This document shows positions 32,852-42,433 of a stretch of DNA of 52,113 nt, in pieces. Location of the stretch: contig JBHIFL010000021.1 of assembly GCA_046761065.1 (NCBI GenBank), forward strand, positions 1 through 52,113. The letters are read 5' to 3'. The translations under genes were made by a program, and so were the position numbers. The stretch is from Candidatus Heimdallarchaeota archaeon. GTDB lineage: Archaea; Asgardarchaeota; Wukongarchaeia; Wukongarchaeales; JBHIFL01. The notes under the pieces are model-generated. The model saw nothing but the letters and a program-made list of their open reading frames with translations, searched no databases and was not told where the DNA came from. How positions within the stretch are numbered: position 1 is the first letter of the stretch; the number at the start of each line of letters is the position of its first letter.

Positions 32852-33109
32852 TCAGGACTCTCTTTTATGTTTAGGCATCGAAAGTACCCGGCCTCCATGA
32901 GTACTCTTTATATGAGGGAAATTATAAAGATCTCTGTCAGCATTTACTTCAATCTTCAAGAGCCCTTCGGTCAGAAAGAGATTGAGGAAGAACTTTTTAC
33001 CACATGTTGGACAAAAAGTGTTCACAGTATGTTTTCCTCCTCCTTGATCAGGGACTGAGAGTAATGTATTACAAATGGAGCAATGAAATGTGATCTTATT
33101 GAGTTTCAT
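32852..33109 (-). CDS. Small zinc-ribbon protein
   Basis: CSIC...CPTCG; AGGAGG upstream of ATG. Confidence 0.7.
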   Translation of the reverse strand: MKLNKITFHCSICNTLLSVPDQGGGKHTVNTFCPTCGKKFFLNLFLTEGLLKIEVNADRDLYNFPHIKSTHGGRVLSMPKHKRES

Positions 33110-33551: not shown

Positions 33552-33558
33552 AAAAAAA
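33552..33558 (-). terminator. T7 tract terminator
   Basis: Seven T on the minus strand 6 nt after the peptide stop codon. Confidence 0.5.
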
Positions 33559-33564
33559 GGCGAC

Positions 33565-33702
33565 CTAAAGAGGCGTGGGAAGCATTGTAGCACCAAGAGC
33601 TCCGGTCGCCAAGAGAGCTGCTAGGACGATCATTATTGCCATCCCAATTAGAAAACTCGTACTTACTGGAATTGTAAACTTATGAGTTCCAATAGTTGCC
33701 AT
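33565..33702 (-). CDS. Unannotated 45-aa hydrophobic peptide
   Basis: MATIGTHKFTIPVSTSFLIGMAIMIVLAALLATGALGATMLPTPL*. GAGGT motif upstream, starts 37 nt after the S26 stop, T-tract after; below the 60-aa track cutoff. Confidence 0.7.
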   Translation of the reverse strand: MATIGTHKFTIPVSTSFLIGMAIMIVLAALLATGALGATMLPTPL

Positions 33703-33739
33703 ACTTAATCAACCTCAACAACTTCTTTACAGTTAATCC

Positions 33740-35044
33740 TTAAAAAATTTGTTTTTCAAGATCTTTCTCATTCTTCTGAGAAAAAAGTGATTGTTCGATT
33801 TTCCAATACCCCAGCCCGATAAGAACAGAAGCGATGCTGATGAACAAAAGATGAGGTAACACATATGGGTGAACAATCATTCGATATTCATATTTTCTTA
33901 AATACCCCACCGGTGAAAACCAATATCGCTCACTATAATCCCATTTCTGCATATCTTGCACGAACTGCAAGGATTCTTCCCCGTTGATCCCATTAGATAC
34001 TCGTTGGGCTGAATATGCAAAAGCATTTACAACAATATAGCTTGCATTCACTGAAGTAATAAACGGGAAATAAAAGCCTAAATATTCTGAATTCACTCGA
34101 TTTGAGATAATAACTAGCCCTAGGTGATTAATTGTCAGCCGTTCGGTGTAGTTTATATCCTTAATTGTACCATTTGACCATTGTTTGACCTTTTTTGTTA
34201 ACTGTATTATTATATATTGTGGGATTTTTGCAAGTATTTGGATCTCAATTGTTCCACCCGTAGGGGAGGTAGGTCCCCAGACCTGTTTTATCTCCCCAGA
34301 AATCTGGTAAATTGCGCTCTCGCCGGGTTCGATTGTCTCTCCAAAGCCATTTGTTGAAAGTTCAATGACTTCTGTTACGTGGCCGCCACTCAAGCTAAAT
34401 CCTTGCATTATTACCAACATTACAAAGGAGGAGCCTGCAAGTCCCACCAGCCCTTTTTTCTTTAAACGAATGGATCTCACATAGAAAACCCAATAAAGGA
34501 AAGCTGCAATGAAAATAAGTGCAAAAAGGCCGTCGAATGAAATTAGGATTGCGATTGGCCAGCCAAGATATCGGAGCTTATAAATAACTTGGCCTTTGAT
34601 TGTCTTGGCTGGGACTAGCGAAATGATAATCCGCCTCCCATTGTCATCGAAGGCGGGTTTGTGAATAACGTCTTTGGCGCCTTTATGCACGTCAGGTCTG
34701 CCGTTCAATTCACCATAGAGCGCAAAATATCTTATCCCATCAATGATTGAGATATTCCAGACTTGGTGGAGAATTCGTTCTTGGAAGGTGCCATAATCGA
34801 TCTCATAGATGATGATATCCCCAACCTTCAGATCTACAGGGTCCACTTTCTGTACTATGAGCAGATCACCCACTTCATAGTAGGGGGACATACTTGGAGA
34901 CATGACCACCTCGAATGGTCTGGGATTAGAGGTCCCAATAGCAATAAGAGCATAGCTCACCAAAAAGAAAATAACTGGCGCAACAAACGCCATGCGTGAT
35001 CTTTTCTCCTCTTTTTCGTGGGGATTGTCCCTACTCATATGCAA
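33740..35044 (-). CDS. Signal peptidase I-like (S26, ER/Sec11-type) multi-pass protein with C-terminal extension
   Basis: VMSPSMSP (Ser), GDLLIV, LKVGDIIIY, ILHQV (His), GELNGRPD and IKGQV...YLGW; additional TM segments and a ~180-aa extra domain. Confidence 0.8.
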   Translation of the reverse strand: MHMSRDNPHEKEEKRSRMAFVAPVIFFLVSYALIAIGTSNPRPFEVVMSPSMSPYYEVGDLLIVQKVDPVDLKVGDIIIYEIDYGTFQERILHQVWNISIIDGIRYFALYGELNGRPDVHKGAKDVIHKPAFDDNGRRIIISLVPAKTIKGQVIYKLRYLGWPIAILISFDGLFALIFIAAFLYWVFYVRSIRLKKKGLVGLAGSSFVMLVIMQGFSLSGGHVTEVIELSTNGFGETIEPGESAIYQISGEIKQVWGPTSPTGGTIEIQILAKIPQYIIIQLTKKVKQWSNGTIKDINYTERLTINHLGLVIISNRVNSEYLGFYFPFITSVNASYIVVNAFAYSAQRVSNGINGEESLQFVQDMQKWDYSERYWFSPVGYLRKYEYRMIVHPYVLPHLLFISIASVLIGLGYWKIEQSLFSQKNEKDLEKQIF

Positions 35045-35075
35045 GTTATTCCTCTACCTGCTGCCTATCATGAGT

Positions 35076-36197
35076 TCAAATCTGGATTAAATCCTCGCTC
35101 AACAGCTTAATCGCGAATTTCACCCGTTTTTTGTACATTTCTTTGGTTCTTTTGTTTTTTCCATAGCGTTCGAGGATGTCCAGCCCTTCGATTAGAAGGG
35201 CTACACTAACATCGAAATTAATGGGAAATCCATCCGGGTAGAGGCTGTGTAGGCTGGGTGCTCCCCACATCTGAAGAGTGGTGTCATAGTCTCGTAAGAA
35301 GTGTTTTAAGAGGTTTTGAGTCTTTGAAATGCTATTTGTTCTTTCATATTCCTGGAAAAAGAAAATTGAGAAGAATATTCCAATATCTTCAAATCGAGAA
35401 ACACTACTTGAAGTGTCTTCTAAATATTCCGGATCAATTATCCATATGATTGGATTCTCTGATCCTAGGTATTCTTGTTTTCCTCCTAAATCTGAAGAGG
35501 TTGACGAAAAAAGAATATTTCCATCATGGAAATCTCCAAAAGGGGTGGTACCCCCAAGGGAAGTGGTCAACAGCTTCATTTGTTTCCCGAACAGGTCCAG
35601 AAAGATATCTTTCAGCTTTATCCCAGCTCCAGGGAGCTGCACGGTTGCCATGGTTACAAGTCCTTCATAACGAGCTATGTTTATTTCGCGAATATCTGGT
35701 CCATGAATAGCCGCTAAGGCCCTACCTGCTAGACTTGCTTTTTTTGAGGGAGGGAGTTTCGTATCATTATATTCTGTTCCATCAATCCCCTCATAAACTA
35801 ATAATCCTAATTTTGGATCTGAATGCAACAATTTAGGTGTTTTTATATCTGGTACAGGAGGTTGGCGGTTTTGAAGACGCTCTCGAAGAATGTTTGCTTT
35901 TCTAGCCTCCTCCAAGGTTTTCTCAGACGTTTTGAAAAATTTTATAGCAATTTTTGAAGTCTGCTTTCCCATCTCTGTGCTGTATTGGACTGAAATGAGG
36001 TTGATCATTCCCGATCTGCCAAATTTTTTTACTCGCGAGACATCATTTATTGCAAAAAACCTGGGCCTTTGACCAGTTTGAGCTTCGAATTGATCGAAAA
36101 AATATTCTTGAAAGTGTTCAGCAATTTGACTAAGGGTTTCTTCTAAATGGATTTTTTGAATGATTCGCTTTGTAGTATCTGATTGATGTTCTGACAT
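35076..36197 (-). CDS. Protein-kinase-like / APH-family phosphotransferase
   Basis: IAIKFF, LVYEGIDG, LAAIH, FGDFHDGNILF (catalytic loop), IIDPE and RFEDIG. Confidence 0.85.
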   Translation of the reverse strand: MSEHQSDTTKRIIQKIHLEETLSQIAEHFQEYFFDQFEAQTGQRPRFFAINDVSRVKKFGRSGMINLISVQYSTEMGKQTSKIAIKFFKTSEKTLEEARKANILRERLQNRQPPVPDIKTPKLLHSDPKLGLLVYEGIDGTEYNDTKLPPSKKASLAGRALAAIHGPDIREINIARYEGLVTMATVQLPGAGIKLKDIFLDLFGKQMKLLTTSLGGTTPFGDFHDGNILFSSTSSDLGGKQEYLGSENPIIWIIDPEYLEDTSSSVSRFEDIGIFFSIFFFQEYERTNSISKTQNLLKHFLRDYDTTLQMWGAPSLHSLYPDGFPINFDVSVALLIEGLDILERYGKNKRTKEMYKKRVKFAIKLLSEDLIQI

Positions 36198-36341: not shown

Positions 36342-37073
36342 TTAGGTCTTCTGTTCTGCTTTGGCTAATGTCTGGATCTGTTGCGCATCCTCTGCCAGAT
36401 TTGATAAGCGGGTTTGAGCTTCTTGTAGGCCATCTCCTTCTAATAGTCTTACTGGTGAGCCATCGGTGAGGGGCAGAAATATCGCTTGTATAAACACCTC
36501 AAGCCGATCAAGTAAGTCCGATAGACCATGAAATTGTTCTTTAAAGGTGGCTATTTCTCCTTTTTCCGGCATGATCATCGCCACGCCCGCAGAGGAATCA
36601 ATTGTTTGTTGCATTCCACGGTGGACGATTTGAATAGTACTTATAATTCGGTCAAATAAAATTTCTAATTCACGAGTGGCTTCAGGGCTTTTTCTTTTTA
36701 GTTGGGTTTTTGCTTCTTCAAAGCGTGGAACGAGCTCCTTTATTCGGTTAAGATCTGATTTTATCCGATTAATGGTCACAAAGACCCGGTTTCTATCCCA
36801 TTCAACCCCCACTCCTTCTCGCTTTTCAAAAAACCATAGTGGTAGATTTCTAGTTGTATCAATGATCGAACGGATGGCTCGATATTCTTCAAGATAACTT
36901 TTCACTTTTGCCTGATCTATTCCGATCGTGGAACGAAGGAGACGCTTCTCTTCACTCATAAATTGTTTCTCACGGAGTAAAAAATTTAGGATTTGCGTGT
37001 TTCCATGTTCTTGAAACAATTTAGGGTGTGTAATGATCACTTCTAGGATTTGCTCTATCGGATCTTGCTCCAA
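36342..37073 (-). CDS. Alpha-helical/coiled-coil hypothetical protein
   Basis: 243-aa ORF, TTG start after AAGGAG; heptad-like composition. Confidence 0.8.
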   Translation of the reverse strand: MEQDPIEQILEVIITHPKLFQEHGNTQILNFLLREKQFMSEEKRLLRSTIGIDQAKVKSYLEEYRAIRSIIDTTRNLPLWFFEKREGVGVEWDRNRVFVTINRIKSDLNRIKELVPRFEEAKTQLKRKSPEATRELEILFDRIISTIQIVHRGMQQTIDSSAGVAMIMPEKGEIATFKEQFHGLSDLLDRLEVFIQAIFLPLTDGSPVRLLEGDGLQEAQTRLSNLAEDAQQIQTLAKAEQKT

Positions 37074-37402: not shown

Positions 37403-38473
37403 CTAAAGTAATTTCTGTGCCCCTGCAATTAATCCTGCAGGTCCTGCCATCATTTGATCTCCAAATGGAGCTGCATGATGAAGGCGTTCCAAAGGCGAGA
37501 AGTTCATTTTGTGTTTTTGAGGACCAAGGATAGCTATGATTTCGATATTGCCTGATCCAATTGGCTCTTGGGTAAACGCCCCATGGCCACCACTCTTAAA
37601 AACTTCTTCATTTGGTAATTCGCCATCAGCCAAAGCCAACAGATCATTCTTCGCTTTTAGACCATTCATCAAGCCAGTATGCTGCTCATAGATTGCCATC
37701 AGTCGTTTTTTAACTATTATGCCCCCTAATGTGTGCTGATTGCCGAAATTCAAGATGCCAACATATTCTTTGGTTTTCAGGATCTCATCTTCTAGGGCTC
37801 CAAATAACACCGCTGGTCCAGTATCCATGACCAGACCGTCGCATCCTCTTTCTGTAATCTGTCGCGCGACCGCGCGCATCCTGGTAAATTCTGGAAGGAC
37901 TTGTCCTGTTTTAAATGCAAACTCCTCTATCCTGCCTCCTGCTTCAATCCCCGGTCTGAGGAGTCTTTCAAACCTAAATCTCCGCTCACTCTCACCTTTT
38001 GGAGCTTCTCCATGATCTTGGACTGCTACTGCAATCCCATCTACGGATCCAATGGAAATCCCAAAGTAAGCAAATGCCCTCTCTAGCGCATCCAGATCCA
38101 GATCACCCGTTCTGAGGCGCACATACCCTTCGCCTTCTAGCTTGTCAACCAATGCATCTGAGATGATCTCGATGCTCATCTCCCGAACAATATCTAAGTT
38201 GTCTCTAATGGTTCTTGCCGCTTTTGGTGTCATCGCTACATTAAACCCTGCTTCTAGATGCTTCTTGATTGATCGCGCAAATGGAAAACCCCCCATTGTC
38301 TCTCCATCGACCACAATATTCTTTCTTAGGCGCGTGAGCTTATCGACTTTTGCGGCTAAAAGTTTTGGTTGGGAAGGTAGAACCGCTTTCACGGCATTGC
38401 CAATTTCATTGTAGCTGTCATATAGGAGGATGTCTTGGGTTCCTGCCCCGACATCAATCGCTAGCAATCTCAT
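37403..38473 (-). CDS. DUF1786 family protein (ASKHA/actin-like fold)
   Basis: LAIDVGAGTQDILLYD, GETMGG, AVQDHG, MDTGPA, GNQHT, EQHT and GGHGA. Confidence 0.85.
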   Translation of the reverse strand: MRLLAIDVGAGTQDILLYDSYNEIGNAVKAVLPSQPKLLAAKVDKLTRLRKNIVVDGETMGGFPFARSIKKHLEAGFNVAMTPKAARTIRDNLDIVREMSIEIISDALVDKLEGEGYVRLRTGDLDLDALERAFAYFGISIGSVDGIAVAVQDHGEAPKGESERRFRFERLLRPGIEAGGRIEEFAFKTGQVLPEFTRMRAVARQITERGCDGLVMDTGPAVLFGALEDEILKTKEYVGILNFGNQHTLGGIIVKKRLMAIYEQHTGLMNGLKAKNDLLALADGELPNEEVFKSGGHGAFTQEPIGSGNIEIIAILGPQKHKMNFSPLERLHHAAPFGDQMMAGPAGLIAGAQKLL

Positions 38474-38551
38474 TTATACTCACCACCATCAGGTTCTTTT
38501 AAACATCTAATCAAAGATTTGAGTGTTCTAGGGCTACTTCTCGGACGGTTT

Positions 38552-39955
38552 TTAGAAGCTGTCGCTTTTGGAAAGAAGACAAAAGGGCGGCGGCGGTCGC
38601 AATTCATATAAAACAAAATGTTTGGCCTCAATTATTTTAGTGGCACCTGGTGGTATAGGTGGAACTCTCAGAGAAAGCTTGTCGATTAAAATCAGTACAT
38701 GCTCATAGTTTTCCCATAGCTCATGTGAAAGCTTTTTGGCTATATTACAATTTGTAATATACTGAACCCAATATCCAAGACGCAAATCACCAACTATAAC
38801 AGAGTTTGAAGGAATAAAACTTCCAATAAACTCTAGCTCATGATAATCTACCTCTCGAATCGTTGGCTTAATGGTCTTCGAAGTCGCAACTCCCTGCAAA
38901 ACAAGTGGAAGGAGACATAAAAGCAGAAATATTGCAGAGATCAATTTTCGTTTTATTTTTGACACAGCAAAACCCAAGACAAAAGCTATTGGAATAAATT
39001 CCATCAAGAGAAAACGCCACAACCACTCTTGGGGAATGAAGGGGAGAGAAAGAAAAACGCCTACGATGGTGACTGTGGAAATAGCTAAGGCGGTTTCTCT
39101 TTTTTTCGTGCGCCACTCATAAAAAGATAAAACAACTCCGGTTGCAAGGATTGGTATTATAAATAATCCACCTGAAGGTTCGAAAATAAATCCCATGGGG
39201 TTTGTCTCGCTTGTCTCAGTAAACAAATCTCTGAGAAACGCTAATCCCTTATAGAAATCTGTGAAAAAAGATGGAAAAACCACGAATGCTGAAATAGCGA
39301 AAACTAGAACGACTAAACTAAGGATTCCCGGAGTTTTTACAATGGATTTCCAGTCTTCACCAATAAAGCAGGCAATTAACGGGTAAAGAAACAGGAAGAG
39401 AAGAGCCACTCCAAAGTCTAAAATATGAGTTGCCCCAGTTAAAATTAGAAAAAAGGCGGCAAAAAACATGCTTTTCTTGGTTCTGTTGAAGCTGGAACAA
39501 TGGAGATAATAGATGAAACATAGTAAGAAAAACGCTCCAACTGAATTTTTGAGTAAGTCGTTCATTAATCTTATGTGTGGCGCCGAAAAGATGCATGCAA
39601 CCATAGCAACATATCCCGAAAGAGGAGAATGCGTGATTTGTTTCATCCATAAATAAAGTGGAAGGGCTGTTAATGCAGAAAAAATAGCAAGTCCCACTCT
39701 GATTCCCAGAGTGATATCTCCTCCTACAATTAAAGTAAAAAAGGTAAATATCAAAAAAGCTAGGGGAGGGTCCCCATATTTTAGACGTCCACTTTCCAGT
39801 AAACTTCTAACCTGAATCAGATAGTAGGGACCATCTATTCCATAAATAAGAGGATACCTCGTCAAGATATAGAGATAAAAAATGAAACTTGAAATAAGAA
39901 TTAGAATTAAAATTGCACTCTCTTTTCTCAAAGAATTACTTTCGGGGTTCATCAC
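38552..39955 (-). CDS. Polytopic membrane protein, GT-C glycosyltransferase-like
   Basis: First loop GIDGPYY, YGDPPL, about 11-13 TM, and a soluble C-terminal domain with YWVQY. Confidence 0.75.
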   Translation of the reverse strand: MMNPESNSLRKESAILILILISSFIFYLYILTRYPLIYGIDGPYYLIQVRSLLESGRLKYGDPPLAFLIFTFFTLIVGGDITLGIRVGLAIFSALTALPLYLWMKQITHSPLSGYVAMVACIFSAPHIRLMNDLLKNSVGAFFLLCFIYYLHCSSFNRTKKSMFFAAFFLILTGATHILDFGVALLFLFLYPLIACFIGEDWKSIVKTPGILSLVVLVFAISAFVVFPSFFTDFYKGLAFLRDLFTETSETNPMGFIFEPSGGLFIIPILATGVVLSFYEWRTKKRETALAISTVTIVGVFLSLPFIPQEWLWRFLLMEFIPIAFVLGFAVSKIKRKLISAIFLLLCLLPLVLQGVATSKTIKPTIREVDYHELEFIGSFIPSNSVIVGDLRLGYWVQYITNCNIAKKLSHELWENYEHVLILIDKLSLRVPPIPPGATKIIEAKHFVLYELRPPPPFCLLSKSDSF

Positions 39956-41683: not shown

Positions 41684-42433
41684 TTAAACGGAAAAACCAA
41701 GCTGTTGAAGTACTTGGACGCCTCTTTCTGGATAGTTCGTTAAAATTCCGTCGATTTTTAGATCTCGAAAAAGATGGATCATTTCCTTCGGATCATCTGT
41801 CCAAAAGAAATTGGCTTTGATACCTTGCTCGTGAAATCGTTCGACCCACTCGCTCGTCGCTGCCGATTTTCTAATTTGAACAATTGGAAGATCCCACTTG
41901 CAACACAGATCTAACGCTTCTTTTGGCGTCCTTTCTTTTTGCAAAAGACCTAACGGACAGTCAGGGGACAATTCTTTGAGGAGAGGAATAGTTTCAATGT
42001 GCTTAATGGCTAGATATCCTCTATGGGGGAGGTGGTGCTCCAAGGCAACGTCTAGAACTGACCGCTCAAACCAGTCCTCATGGGGTGAATGATACTTGAG
42101 TTCGAGGTTCAAGTTTATAGATCTTGGCAGCTTCTCTAAGATTTCGTGGAGGAGTGGAACTCTCGTTCCTTCCCACTGGGGGGCTTTCCATCGTCCGACA
42201 TCAAGTTGCTGGACTTCTCGCCATGCCAGCTCGGATATTTTTTGGGGGATGCCAACAATGCGTTCCAGAGTTTGGTCATGGAAGAGGATTAACTTTTTGT
42301 CAGCAGTCGGTTGAATATCCATTTCAACACAAGTAGCGCCCAATTCTACGGCTCCTAAAAACGATGGAAGTGTGTTTTCTGGGTAATGCCCCGAAGCTCC
42401 GCGATGGGCAATAATCCAAGGTAATTGGCTCAT
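41684..42433 (-). CDS. Glycerophosphodiester phosphodiesterase (GDPD)
   Basis: IAHRGAS..YPENT, EMDI, FHD, NLELK and DGILTNYP motifs. Confidence 0.93.
   Translation of the reverse strand: MSQLPWIIAHRGASGHYPENTLPSFLGAVELGATCVEMDIQPTADKKLILFHDQTLERIVGIPQKISELAWREVQQLDVGRWKAPQWEGTRVPLLHEILEKLPRSINLNLELKYHSPHEDWFERSVLDVALEHHLPHRGYLAIKHIETIPLLKELSPDCPLGLLQKERTPKEALDLCCKWDLPIVQIRKSAATSEWVERFHEQGIKANFFWTDDPKEMIHLFRDLKIDGILTNYPERGVQVLQQLGFSV

Follow-up and report, generated by a model that had tools for sequence, protein, structure and literature searches.

The window analysed here is a 52,113-nucleotide (nt) stretch from a Candidatus Heimdallarchaeota archaeon (contig JBHIFL010000021.1 of assembly GCA_046761065.1, positions 1 to 52,113 of the forward strand). 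Between 33565 and 36197 its minus strand carries three co-oriented open reading frames (ORFs), which encode, in the order of reading, a phosphotransferase-like protein (referred to as the kinase), a divergent paralogue of signal peptidase I of the S26 family (here called S26-ext) and a microprotein of 45 amino acids (aa). A first-pass annotation of this DNA had taken the three genes together as a candidate peptide-maturation system, with the kinase-peptidase-precursor layout of clusters for ribosomally synthesized and post-translationally modified peptides (RiPPs). Comparison with relatives draws the unit more narrowly. What is conserved is the peptidase with its microprotein, not kinase, peptidase and precursor together, and these two very probably form a dedicated functional pair. 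The features of the locus, with the evidence for each, are:

33552-33558, minus strand: T7 tract, six bases past the stop codon of the peptide (sequence reading)
33565-33702, minus strand: microprotein of 45 aa, predicted to be tail-anchored, with a signal-peptide-like build (conservation, pN/pS, pairing at 13 loci)
33589-33600, minus strand: Ala35-Leu36-Gly37-Ala38 of the microprotein, the invariant [AV]-L-G-[AS] motif, with predicted cleavage between Gly37 and Ala38 (alignment of 13 peptides)
33740-35044, minus strand: S26-ext, a divergent signal peptidase I paralogue of the archaeal/ER type, with four membrane helices and a fused beta domain predicted to be extracellular (TIGR02228, AlphaFold2 model, own clade)
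33797-33859, minus strand: fourth membrane helix (TM4) of S26-ext, a C-terminal anchor followed by a short Lys-rich tail, predicted cytoplasmic (hydropathy, model, sequence)
33863-34384, minus strand: antiparallel beta domain of S26-ext, predicted extracellular, residues ~219-392, with the motif LQF[VI]QD[ML] (model)
34394-34537, minus strand: helical hairpin of membrane helices TM2 and TM3, with a basic loop (RLKKK) predicted to be cytoplasmic (hydropathy and model)
34565-34930, minus strand: S26 catalytic domain, residues ~37-158 (SEC11A profile alignment, conservation, fold matches)
34892-34894, 34766-34768 and 34691-34693, minus strand: codons for the catalytic residues Ser49, His91 and Asp116 of S26-ext
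35076-36197, minus strand: kinase, an APH-fold phosphotransferase of 373 aa, predicted cytoplasmic (PF01636, fold model, catalytic residues, no hydrophobic span)
36342-37073, minus strand: helical protein of 243 aa, 144 nt upstream of the kinase, membership unproven

The S26-ext ORF comprises 434 aa from a TTG start (35044) or 432 aa from an ATG at 35038; its residue numbers count from the ATG unless TTG numbering is stated. Only 31 nt separate the kinase stop codon from this TTG and 37 nt the S26-ext stop codon from the peptide ATG, and GAGG-type ribosome-binding motifs lie 5' of both downstream starts. The T7 tract is likely an archaeal oligo-T terminator, and a TATA-like A/T-rich stretch lies within the 144-nt gap upstream of the kinase gene. 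Given the short gaps, the GAGG motifs, the T7 run and the TATA-like stretch, a single kinase-peptidase-peptide transcript is plausible. The ORF list and the sequence confirm the orientation, both gap lengths and the terminal T7 reported in the first-pass annotation.

The peptidase and its microprotein

Relatives were collected by word-based and exhaustive profile searches, and very few full-length S26-ext proteins were found. The family stands at 13 loci; an alignment-based search for related loci did not widen it, returning only two known genomes from a species collection and three ordinary short S26 genes from metagenomes. A profile of the C-terminal half of S26-ext has four clear matches in 400 Asgard genomes (G000, which is the genome of the window, G090, G107 and G108). 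Six loci, the window's and those of its relatives L024, L025, L026, L027 and L028, form the window clade, where the order is kinase, S26-ext and 45-codon peptide and the S26-ext proteins of the relatives are 60-82% identical (60-85% across the kinase-linked loci). Seven distant proteins (P0015, P0018, P0023, P0041, P0163, P0164 and P0165) share 18-23% overall identity with the S26-ext of the window, and all have its architecture, its LQF[VI]QD[ML] motif and its final helix. At all 13 loci an ORF of 45-49 aa with a single hydrophobic span directly adjoins S26-ext on the same strand. As the reading in the first-pass annotation requires, the peptide is present at every locus of the family; it lies downstream in the window lineage and upstream in the seven distant loci, where the gene order is reversed. 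The pairing holds despite this reversal and despite the divergence of S26-ext to 18-23% identity. At two distant loci (L031, L041) both genes flanking the pair are on the opposite strand, and at a third (L030) the downstream one is, so the pair can stand alone.

The peptide itself has a simple plan: a polar, Ser/Thr-rich N-terminal tail (N-tail) of 16 aa, a hydrophobic core of 16 aa, a c-region TGALG and a tail of 8 aa (ATMLPTPL), with Ser or Thr at 9 of its 45 positions. It has exactly 45 codons in all six window-clade loci, at 73-89% identity and with a ratio of nonsynonymous to synonymous differences per site (pN/pS) of 0.19-0.47; in L026 and L028 the ORF has not been called as a gene but is intact. 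The fixed length and the pN/pS values led us to reject a chance ORF. The peptide ORF is under purifying selection and is a real gene. It has no match in Pfam or NCBIfam, including the families of signal peptidase complex (SPC) subunits and the Peptidase_M73/TasA domain. A scan of the whole genome (58,309 ORFs of at least 35 aa) for a hydrophobic span with the motif at its end returned this peptide and one spurious-looking match, and no other substrate with these properties; as the genome also has a single S26-ext gene, there is one peptide per enzyme.

Across the 13 peptides the alignment shows a polar N-tail, a hydrophobic core and a helix breaker (Gly, Ser, Asn or Pro) 1-3 residues before the invariant [AV]-L-G-[AS]. 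Lys and Arg residues flank the core on its N-terminal side. Beyond the Gly of the motif there are exactly 8 residues in all six window-clade peptides and exactly 6 in all seven distant ones. Window-clade N-tails are Ser/Thr-rich and free of acidic residues; those of the distant clade are acidic (M-[IL]-[KR]-D-A-D). The c-region of type I signal peptidase substrates has small residues at -3 and -1 and a helix breaker at -4 to -6. Relative to a cut between Gly37 and Ala38, the window peptide has small residues at -3 and -1 and the helix breaker Gly34 at -4, and since [AV]-L-G-[AS] with its helix breaker fits the -3/-1 rule, this bond is the natural predicted cut site. Two orthologues (L026, L028) read ALGAP, in which Pro would stand at the tolerated +2 position after a cut behind Gly and at the disfavoured +1 position after a cut behind Ala.

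S26-ext matches the archaeal signal peptidase model TIGR02228 (sigpep_I_arch) over residues 23-162 with 59 bits (cut-off 51.85; 61.3 bits in the genome search), and Pfam PF10502 alone scores 14.3 bits, below its threshold of 22.9. In the profile alignment with human SEC11A, SPSMSP falls onto SGSMEP and ILHQV onto IVHRV. Ser49 and His91 do not vary among 73 S26 sequences, at least 90% of which also keep Asp116; within the S26-ext family Asp116 is invariant too. The base position is His, in an H-[RQ]-V box, and not Lys. In the GDNNxxxD box the distal Asp116 is kept; at the position of the first Asp the window clade has Glu110 (GELNGRPD), and Asp is retained in the distant clade (GDANxQPD). The first Asp is reportedly dispensable in Methanococcus voltae.

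An AlphaFold2 model built from the 73-sequence alignment (mean predicted local distance difference test, pLDDT, 87.8; predicted template modelling score, pTM, 0.80) was used in place of an earlier one from 5 close sequences only (pLDDT 50). It contains an N-terminal membrane anchor and the S26 fold. Residues 6-170 match SEC11C (7p2q_A) with Z 11.5 and a root mean square deviation of 3.9 over 146 aligned residues, and Foldseek relates the model to 7p2p_A with an E-value of 6e-5. With the Ser49, His91 and Asp116 residues kept, a fold match to SEC11A/C and TIGR02228 above its cut-off, S26-ext looks catalytically active, and cleavage of signal peptides is predicted. The catalytic domain is followed by the helical hairpin (hydropathy spans 159-192 and 198-218 in TTG numbering; model helices 170-190 and 193-215 in ATG numbering), an antiparallel beta domain of ~170 residues and a fourth membrane helix. 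Lys/Arg-rich segments occur at the N-terminus, in the TM2-TM3 loop (RLKKK) and after TM4, and by the positive-inside rule they would place the catalytic and the beta domain both on the outer face of the membrane.

The beta domain has at least 10 strands in the model, most of its 10-residue blocks at pLDDT 74-96 and residues ~331-340 poorly modelled. Its fold matches are weak, mixed and barrel-like (LmcA 7n3v, Z 7.6, 151 residues aligned; KdgM, Z 8.2; LolA, fHbp and dirigent proteins), at Z ~8 or less (below 8.5), a range that the fold-search tool rates as common. No protein with the full architecture was returned by the Atlas fold search, and an Atlas feature search with residues 216-395 gave no usable match. 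There is no detectable kinship to the C-terminal domain of housekeeping Asgard S26 proteins (hhalign probability 10-18%), and no SPCS3 chain is among the fold matches of the whole S26-ext model, the beta domain not having been folded and searched separately. The domain is specific to the S26-ext family and has no assigned fold family.

The same genome has a second S26 gene on another contig (C138:348-1421), with boxes GSMQP, VHRIV and GDNP. In a quick maximum-likelihood tree of 93 catalytic domains (a careful search did not finish) the 13 S26-ext proteins fall into a single clade, together with a fragment that is almost the same as P0164, at 98% support in the Shimodaira-Hasegawa-like approximate likelihood ratio test (SH-aLRT). 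This clade splits into the window lineage and the distant lineage, and the C138 protein groups with S26 proteins of other Asgard genomes. Since there is this second gene and a separate, well-supported clade, S26-ext is an accessory paralogue and not the housekeeping enzyme, in line with the dedicated signal peptidase proposed in the first-pass annotation. Housekeeping-type S26 proteins are also extended at the C-terminus: that of C138 has 357 aa, and those of two relatives from the same order have 384 aa (L018:1336-2490) and a 407-codon open frame (L021). Their extension consists of a membrane helix, a charged loop, a further membrane helix and a beta-rich outer domain of 130-150 aa, and it lacks the final helix.

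The kinase and neighbouring genes

The kinase, which has the eukaryotic-like-kinase fold of APH enzymes, scores 25 bits against the APH family PF01636 (cut-off 23.2), and the Atlas model of the exact protein matches APH, EcKL and choline-kinase clusters with TM-scores of 0.65-0.69. K86, E97, D222, H224, N227 and D255 are invariant or nearly so among 34 homologues, with D222, H224 and N227 in a D-x-H-x-x-N loop, so that the retention of the catalytic D/N/D noted in the first-pass annotation (D222, N227, D255) extends to these homologues. The Lys-Glu pair, the D-x4-N catalytic loop and the Mg-binding Asp of the APH phosphotransferases are thus all present. The family also has an invariant R268-x-E270-D271 motif. 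With these residues, and with no hydrophobic span by hydropathy, the protein looks like an active cytoplasmic phosphotransferase. A sequence search of the PDB gave nothing significant. The match to the LxmK model NF038156 covers 90 residues only (E 3.9e-4); with 19.6 bits, where 315 are required, it does not make the kinase a member of the LxmK family.

The first-pass annotation had linked kinase and S26. This holds within the window's own lineage, where the kinase lies beside S26-ext at all six loci, and fails beyond it. The kinase is absent from the gene lists of all seven distant loci. In G107 and G108 a homologue is on a different contig from S26-ext. The kinase family occurs in 79 of the 400 Asgard genomes, usually in 1-4 copies each and confined to a subset of families. 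At 28 kinase loci outside the window lineage (L044-L071) there is no S26, helical, DUF1786 or methyltransferase gene within 1.5 kb. The neighbours sampled there are diverse (HIT, fumarase, ABC-2, GH125, dCTP deaminase, PMT_2, amidohydrolase, MFS and, twice, metallophosphoesterase), and none among them is a consistent partner; the two metallophosphoesterases, which are calcineurin-like, adjoin the kinase homologue in L052 and L060. The kinase is a lineage-specific add-on outside the conserved pair, and its link to the system is weak.

The six kinase-linked loci represent a single narrow lineage, so little can be concluded from the gene order they share. They are counted as one lineage because contig G090:C121 was probably either mis-binned or moved whole between lineages. 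It holds L025 together with L033, L043, L078 and L079, and is the only contig in its 22-genome genus with any of these genes. Its orthologues of window genes comprise DUF1786 (71%), the helical gene (54%), the kinase (62%), S26-ext and the peptide, with gene order shared over more than 10 kb, and the contamination of genome G090 is ~8%. The helical gene occurs in 2 of the 400 Asgard genomes, G000 and G090, which are the same two that have the window type of S26-ext, and lies upstream of the kinase in L025, L027 and L028; its product reaches the threshold of no family in Pfam or NCBIfam. This narrow distribution does not show that it takes part in the system.

A class I S-adenosylmethionine (SAM) methyltransferase gene (Methyltransf_25) stands between kinase and S26-ext at two of the six window-clade loci (L025:5010-5753, L028:11194-11970), and no closely related gene exists in the genome of the window, where identities to it reach 23-25% at best. 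On the same strand, 455 nt downstream of the peptide and beyond the T7 tract, the window encodes a zinc-ribbon-like protein of 85 aa (32852-33109, minus strand), with ORFs of similar size at this position in L025 (79 aa) and L026 (86 aa). Upstream, again on the minus strand, the stretches 37403-39955 and 41684-42433 hold three further genes. A DUF1786 protein is matched with 237 bits, and a 467-aa multi-span protein has a weak likeness to the putative glycosyltransferase family NF047440 (19.6 bits, cut-off 200). In relatives a GDPD phosphodiesterase gene precedes DUF1786, and in the window an unannotated ORF of the same length (249 aa) lies further upstream. These surroundings may belong to lipid or glycan metabolism and have no connection with the peptidase. 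Three distant S26-ext loci (L032:7714-9413, L039:9129-9422, L040:4709-6402) are one to four genes from a ubiquitin-like gene, recognized by Rad60-SLD or ubiquitin-like Pfam matches in L032 and L039 and as a gene of the same size without a Pfam match in L040; L032 and L040 also have a ThiF/E1-like gene. As the three loci are mutually related (43-56% identity), this neighbourhood may be inherited rather than functional.

Predicted cleavage and competing explanations

If the pair works as its build suggests, the peptide would insert post-translationally as a tail-anchored protein with its N-terminus inside, since 45 aa are too few for co-translational targeting and Lys and Arg flank the core on its N-terminal side. 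Its c-region, T-G-A-L-G before Ala38, would then lie at the outer surface of the membrane, where S26 active sites work. S26-ext would cut after Gly37 (or Ala38), releasing the hydrophobic 7-8-residue tail (A)TMLPTPL to the outside, while the other 37 residues would stay in the membrane. Binding of the substrate or its product may be the role of the fused beta domain, and if the kinase acts on the system at all, its target would be the Ser/Thr-rich cytoplasmic N-tail. We regard the chances as evenly balanced that S26-ext cleaves the peptide at the outer face in this way and releases a tail of 6-8 residues. Several points weigh against it. Within the window clade conservation is higher in the N-tail and core than in the tail, which would also fit a stable subunit. 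For an S26 substrate, 6-8 residues would be an unusually small product, and the gene lists of the distant loci have no receptor, exporter or other signalling gene conserved beside the pair. The evidence comes entirely from metagenome assemblies, with only 13 loci known, and we infer rather than observe the cleavage, as we do the topology, the site and the roles of the released tail, the beta domain and the kinase.

In the main competing explanation, which is somewhat unlikely, the microprotein stays uncut: it would permanently serve S26-ext as a small subunit or regulator, and the true substrates of the enzyme would be other exported proteins. It might pack on the membrane helices of the enzyme, like SPCS1, lie in the groove as a pseudo-substrate, or guard a membrane partner, like SafA. 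In its favour, peptide and enzyme genes occur one to one, each clade conserves the N-tail and core and keeps the tail length constant, and among the window-clade loci identity is higher for the peptide (73-89%) than for the enzyme (60-82%). Such an arrangement has a precedent in SafA, a small transmembrane protein with an exoplasmic motif, encoded directly downstream of a membrane enzyme, which blocks cleavage by signal peptidase (PMC9282373), and eukaryotic SEC11 works with accessory membrane subunits (7p2p/7p2q). However, the sole invariant feature of the peptide is a textbook signal peptidase site at the end of the core, and not a small-xxx-small packing motif along the helix. The peptide matches no SPC-subunit family, and the gene lists of the distant loci show no further candidate substrate conserved next to the pair. 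The high conservation of the peptide would thus fit a subunit, whereas the signal-peptidase-like site appears to fit cleavage better.

A RiPP-like pathway, in which the kinase phosphorylates the peptide, possibly toward dehydration, and S26-ext then removes the leader, is improbable. It would account for the co-oriented genes with a 31-nt gap that leaves no room for a separate promoter, for the intact catalytic residues of the kinase, for an N-tail that is Ser/Thr-rich in the window clade alone and acidic in the distant peptides, and for a linkage kept at 6 of 6 window-clade loci, with the SAM methyltransferase gene in between in L025 and L028; the LxmK match at E 3.9e-4 points the same way. 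But this match, at 19.6 bits, is far below the cut-off of 315, and all six linked loci belong to a single narrow lineage, in which operon layout and N-tail change amount to a single evolutionary event. Elsewhere the two genes part company: 0 of 7 distant S26-ext/peptide loci have the kinase, G107 and G108 carry its homologue on another contig, its homologues are found in 79 of 400 Asgard genomes as against about 4 for S26-ext, and the 28 further kinase loci have no S26 within 1.5 kb and diverse neighbours where sampled. The peptide does consist of a leader-like part and a short tail with Thr in the window clade, but this tail is predicted to be outside after insertion, and a cytoplasmic kinase would reach the N-tail only and not the part to be released. 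The RiPP-like reading that the first-pass annotation gave to the kinase-peptidase-precursor layout is accordingly not upheld.

S26-ext might also act as a transpeptidase, removing the short C-terminal tail and passing the acyl-linked 37-mer to a lipid head group, a surface protein or a copy of the peptide. A large retained N-terminal part with a tiny leaving group of fixed length would suit this, and mirrors TraF with TrbC and TrhF with TrhA, where a signal peptidase homologue attacks the C-terminus of a pilin and few residues are lost (PMC12037004). A beta domain beside the active site, weakly like lipid- or lipoprotein-binding barrels (LmcA, LolA), could be read likewise, but those matches are weak (Z below 8.5) and no acceptor is evident. 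Enzymes of the TraF type are Ser/Lys peptidases of S26A, whereas S26-ext has Ser/His/Asp. A transpeptidase is highly improbable. The cyclisation of the TraF/TrbC type raised in the first-pass annotation does not fit, since head-to-tail joining is not possible for a single-span peptide that has one end on each side of the membrane.

Returning to cleavage and release of the tail, a more far-reaching form of it is rather improbable: a secreted oligopeptide signal in Asgard archaea close to the eukaryotic stem. Its precursor, almost all signal peptide, would be cut by its own peptidase paralogue to a hydrophobic 6-8-mer, the beta domain would bind the peptide or hand it on, and the kinase of the window lineage would tune the output by phosphorylating the Ser/Thr-rich N-tail, which is acidic in the distant precursors.

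Relation to known systems

Dedicated signal peptidase paralogues are already known (SipW, TraF), but we know of none whose partner consists of hardly anything beyond a signal peptide, nor, to our knowledge, has any peptide-processing or peptide-signalling system been described in archaea. Literature searches found no published description of an S26-ext/peptide pair. The module is found in Heimdallarchaeia (Hodarchaeales-type genomes), the archaea nearest to eukaryotes, and the catalytic subunit of the eukaryotic signal peptidase complex arose from peptidases of the same type as the enzyme of this module. With only two genes the system is compact, and it clearly predicts a cut that depends on Ser49 and falls between the Gly and the [AS] of the [AV]LG[AS] motif. 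Should the peptide instead be an uncleaved subunit, it would represent an archaeal signal peptidase with an accessory membrane partner, bearing on the origin of the multi-subunit eukaryotic complex. The negative result for the kinase keeps the locus from being labelled a RiPP cluster on gene order alone.

Among small membrane peptides, Gram-positive pheromone precursors (AgrD, 46 aa; Phr, SHP, ComS) are of similar size, yield a product of 5-9 residues from their C-terminal part and are encoded with or near a membrane protease, but no receptor or transporter is linked to S26-ext and its peptide. We know of no peptide pheromone in archaea. The leader of AgrD is removed by MroQ, and SpsB cleaves AgrD poorly (PMC9388083). 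SafA, which protects an actinobacterial sortase from LepB2 (PMC9282373), resembles the microprotein in being a conserved small transmembrane protein directly beside a membrane enzyme gene, with a conserved motif on the outer face; it differs in that it is not signal-peptide-like, has no sequence similarity to the microprotein, and that here the neighbour is the peptidase itself.

TraF with TrbC (RP4) and TrhF with TrhA (R27) are pairs in which an S26-family enzyme matures a pilin by removing a few C-terminal residues (PMC12037004). The likeness lies in the combination of such an enzyme with a small membrane protein and, as proposed here, the removal of few C-terminal residues. Those systems belong to conjugation clusters and cyclise a pilin with two helices, whereas here there is one helix and a His base, and the gene lists of the S26-ext loci contain no transfer genes.

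In its catalytic half S26-ext resembles archaeal Sec11a/Sec11b and eukaryotic SEC11A/C (S26B), sharing the Ser of SxSMxP, the His of H-[RQ]-V, the distal Asp of GDNNxxxD, the N-terminal anchor and the fold (Z 11.5). It is set apart from them by GELN (window clade) or GDAN (distant clade) in the last box, a sub-threshold PF10502 score, a separate clade, the fused C-terminal half and the obligate microprotein neighbour. Archaea do have dispensable signal peptidase paralogues, and a review of the archaeal cell surface mentions such paralogues but nothing like the S26-ext/peptide pair (PMC6098224).

In Bacillus subtilis, SipW is a dedicated, archaeal-like signal peptidase encoded beside its substrates TasA and TapA (PMC10269814). 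S26-ext differs from it in having three additional membrane helices and a beta domain of 170 aa that is predicted to be extracellular, and the SipW equivalog model scores 19 bits on it (cut-off 190). The partner differs as well: TasA-type fibre subunits have ~260 aa, while the partner here is a microprotein of 45-49 aa with 6-8 residues past the site and without a Peptidase_M73/TasA domain. In both cases, an extra S26 paralogue of the ER/archaeal type exists besides the housekeeping enzyme and is encoded beside a signal-peptide-like protein, and the genetic pairing implies specificity. By analogy, S26-ext and its peptide would work most like SipW with TasA.

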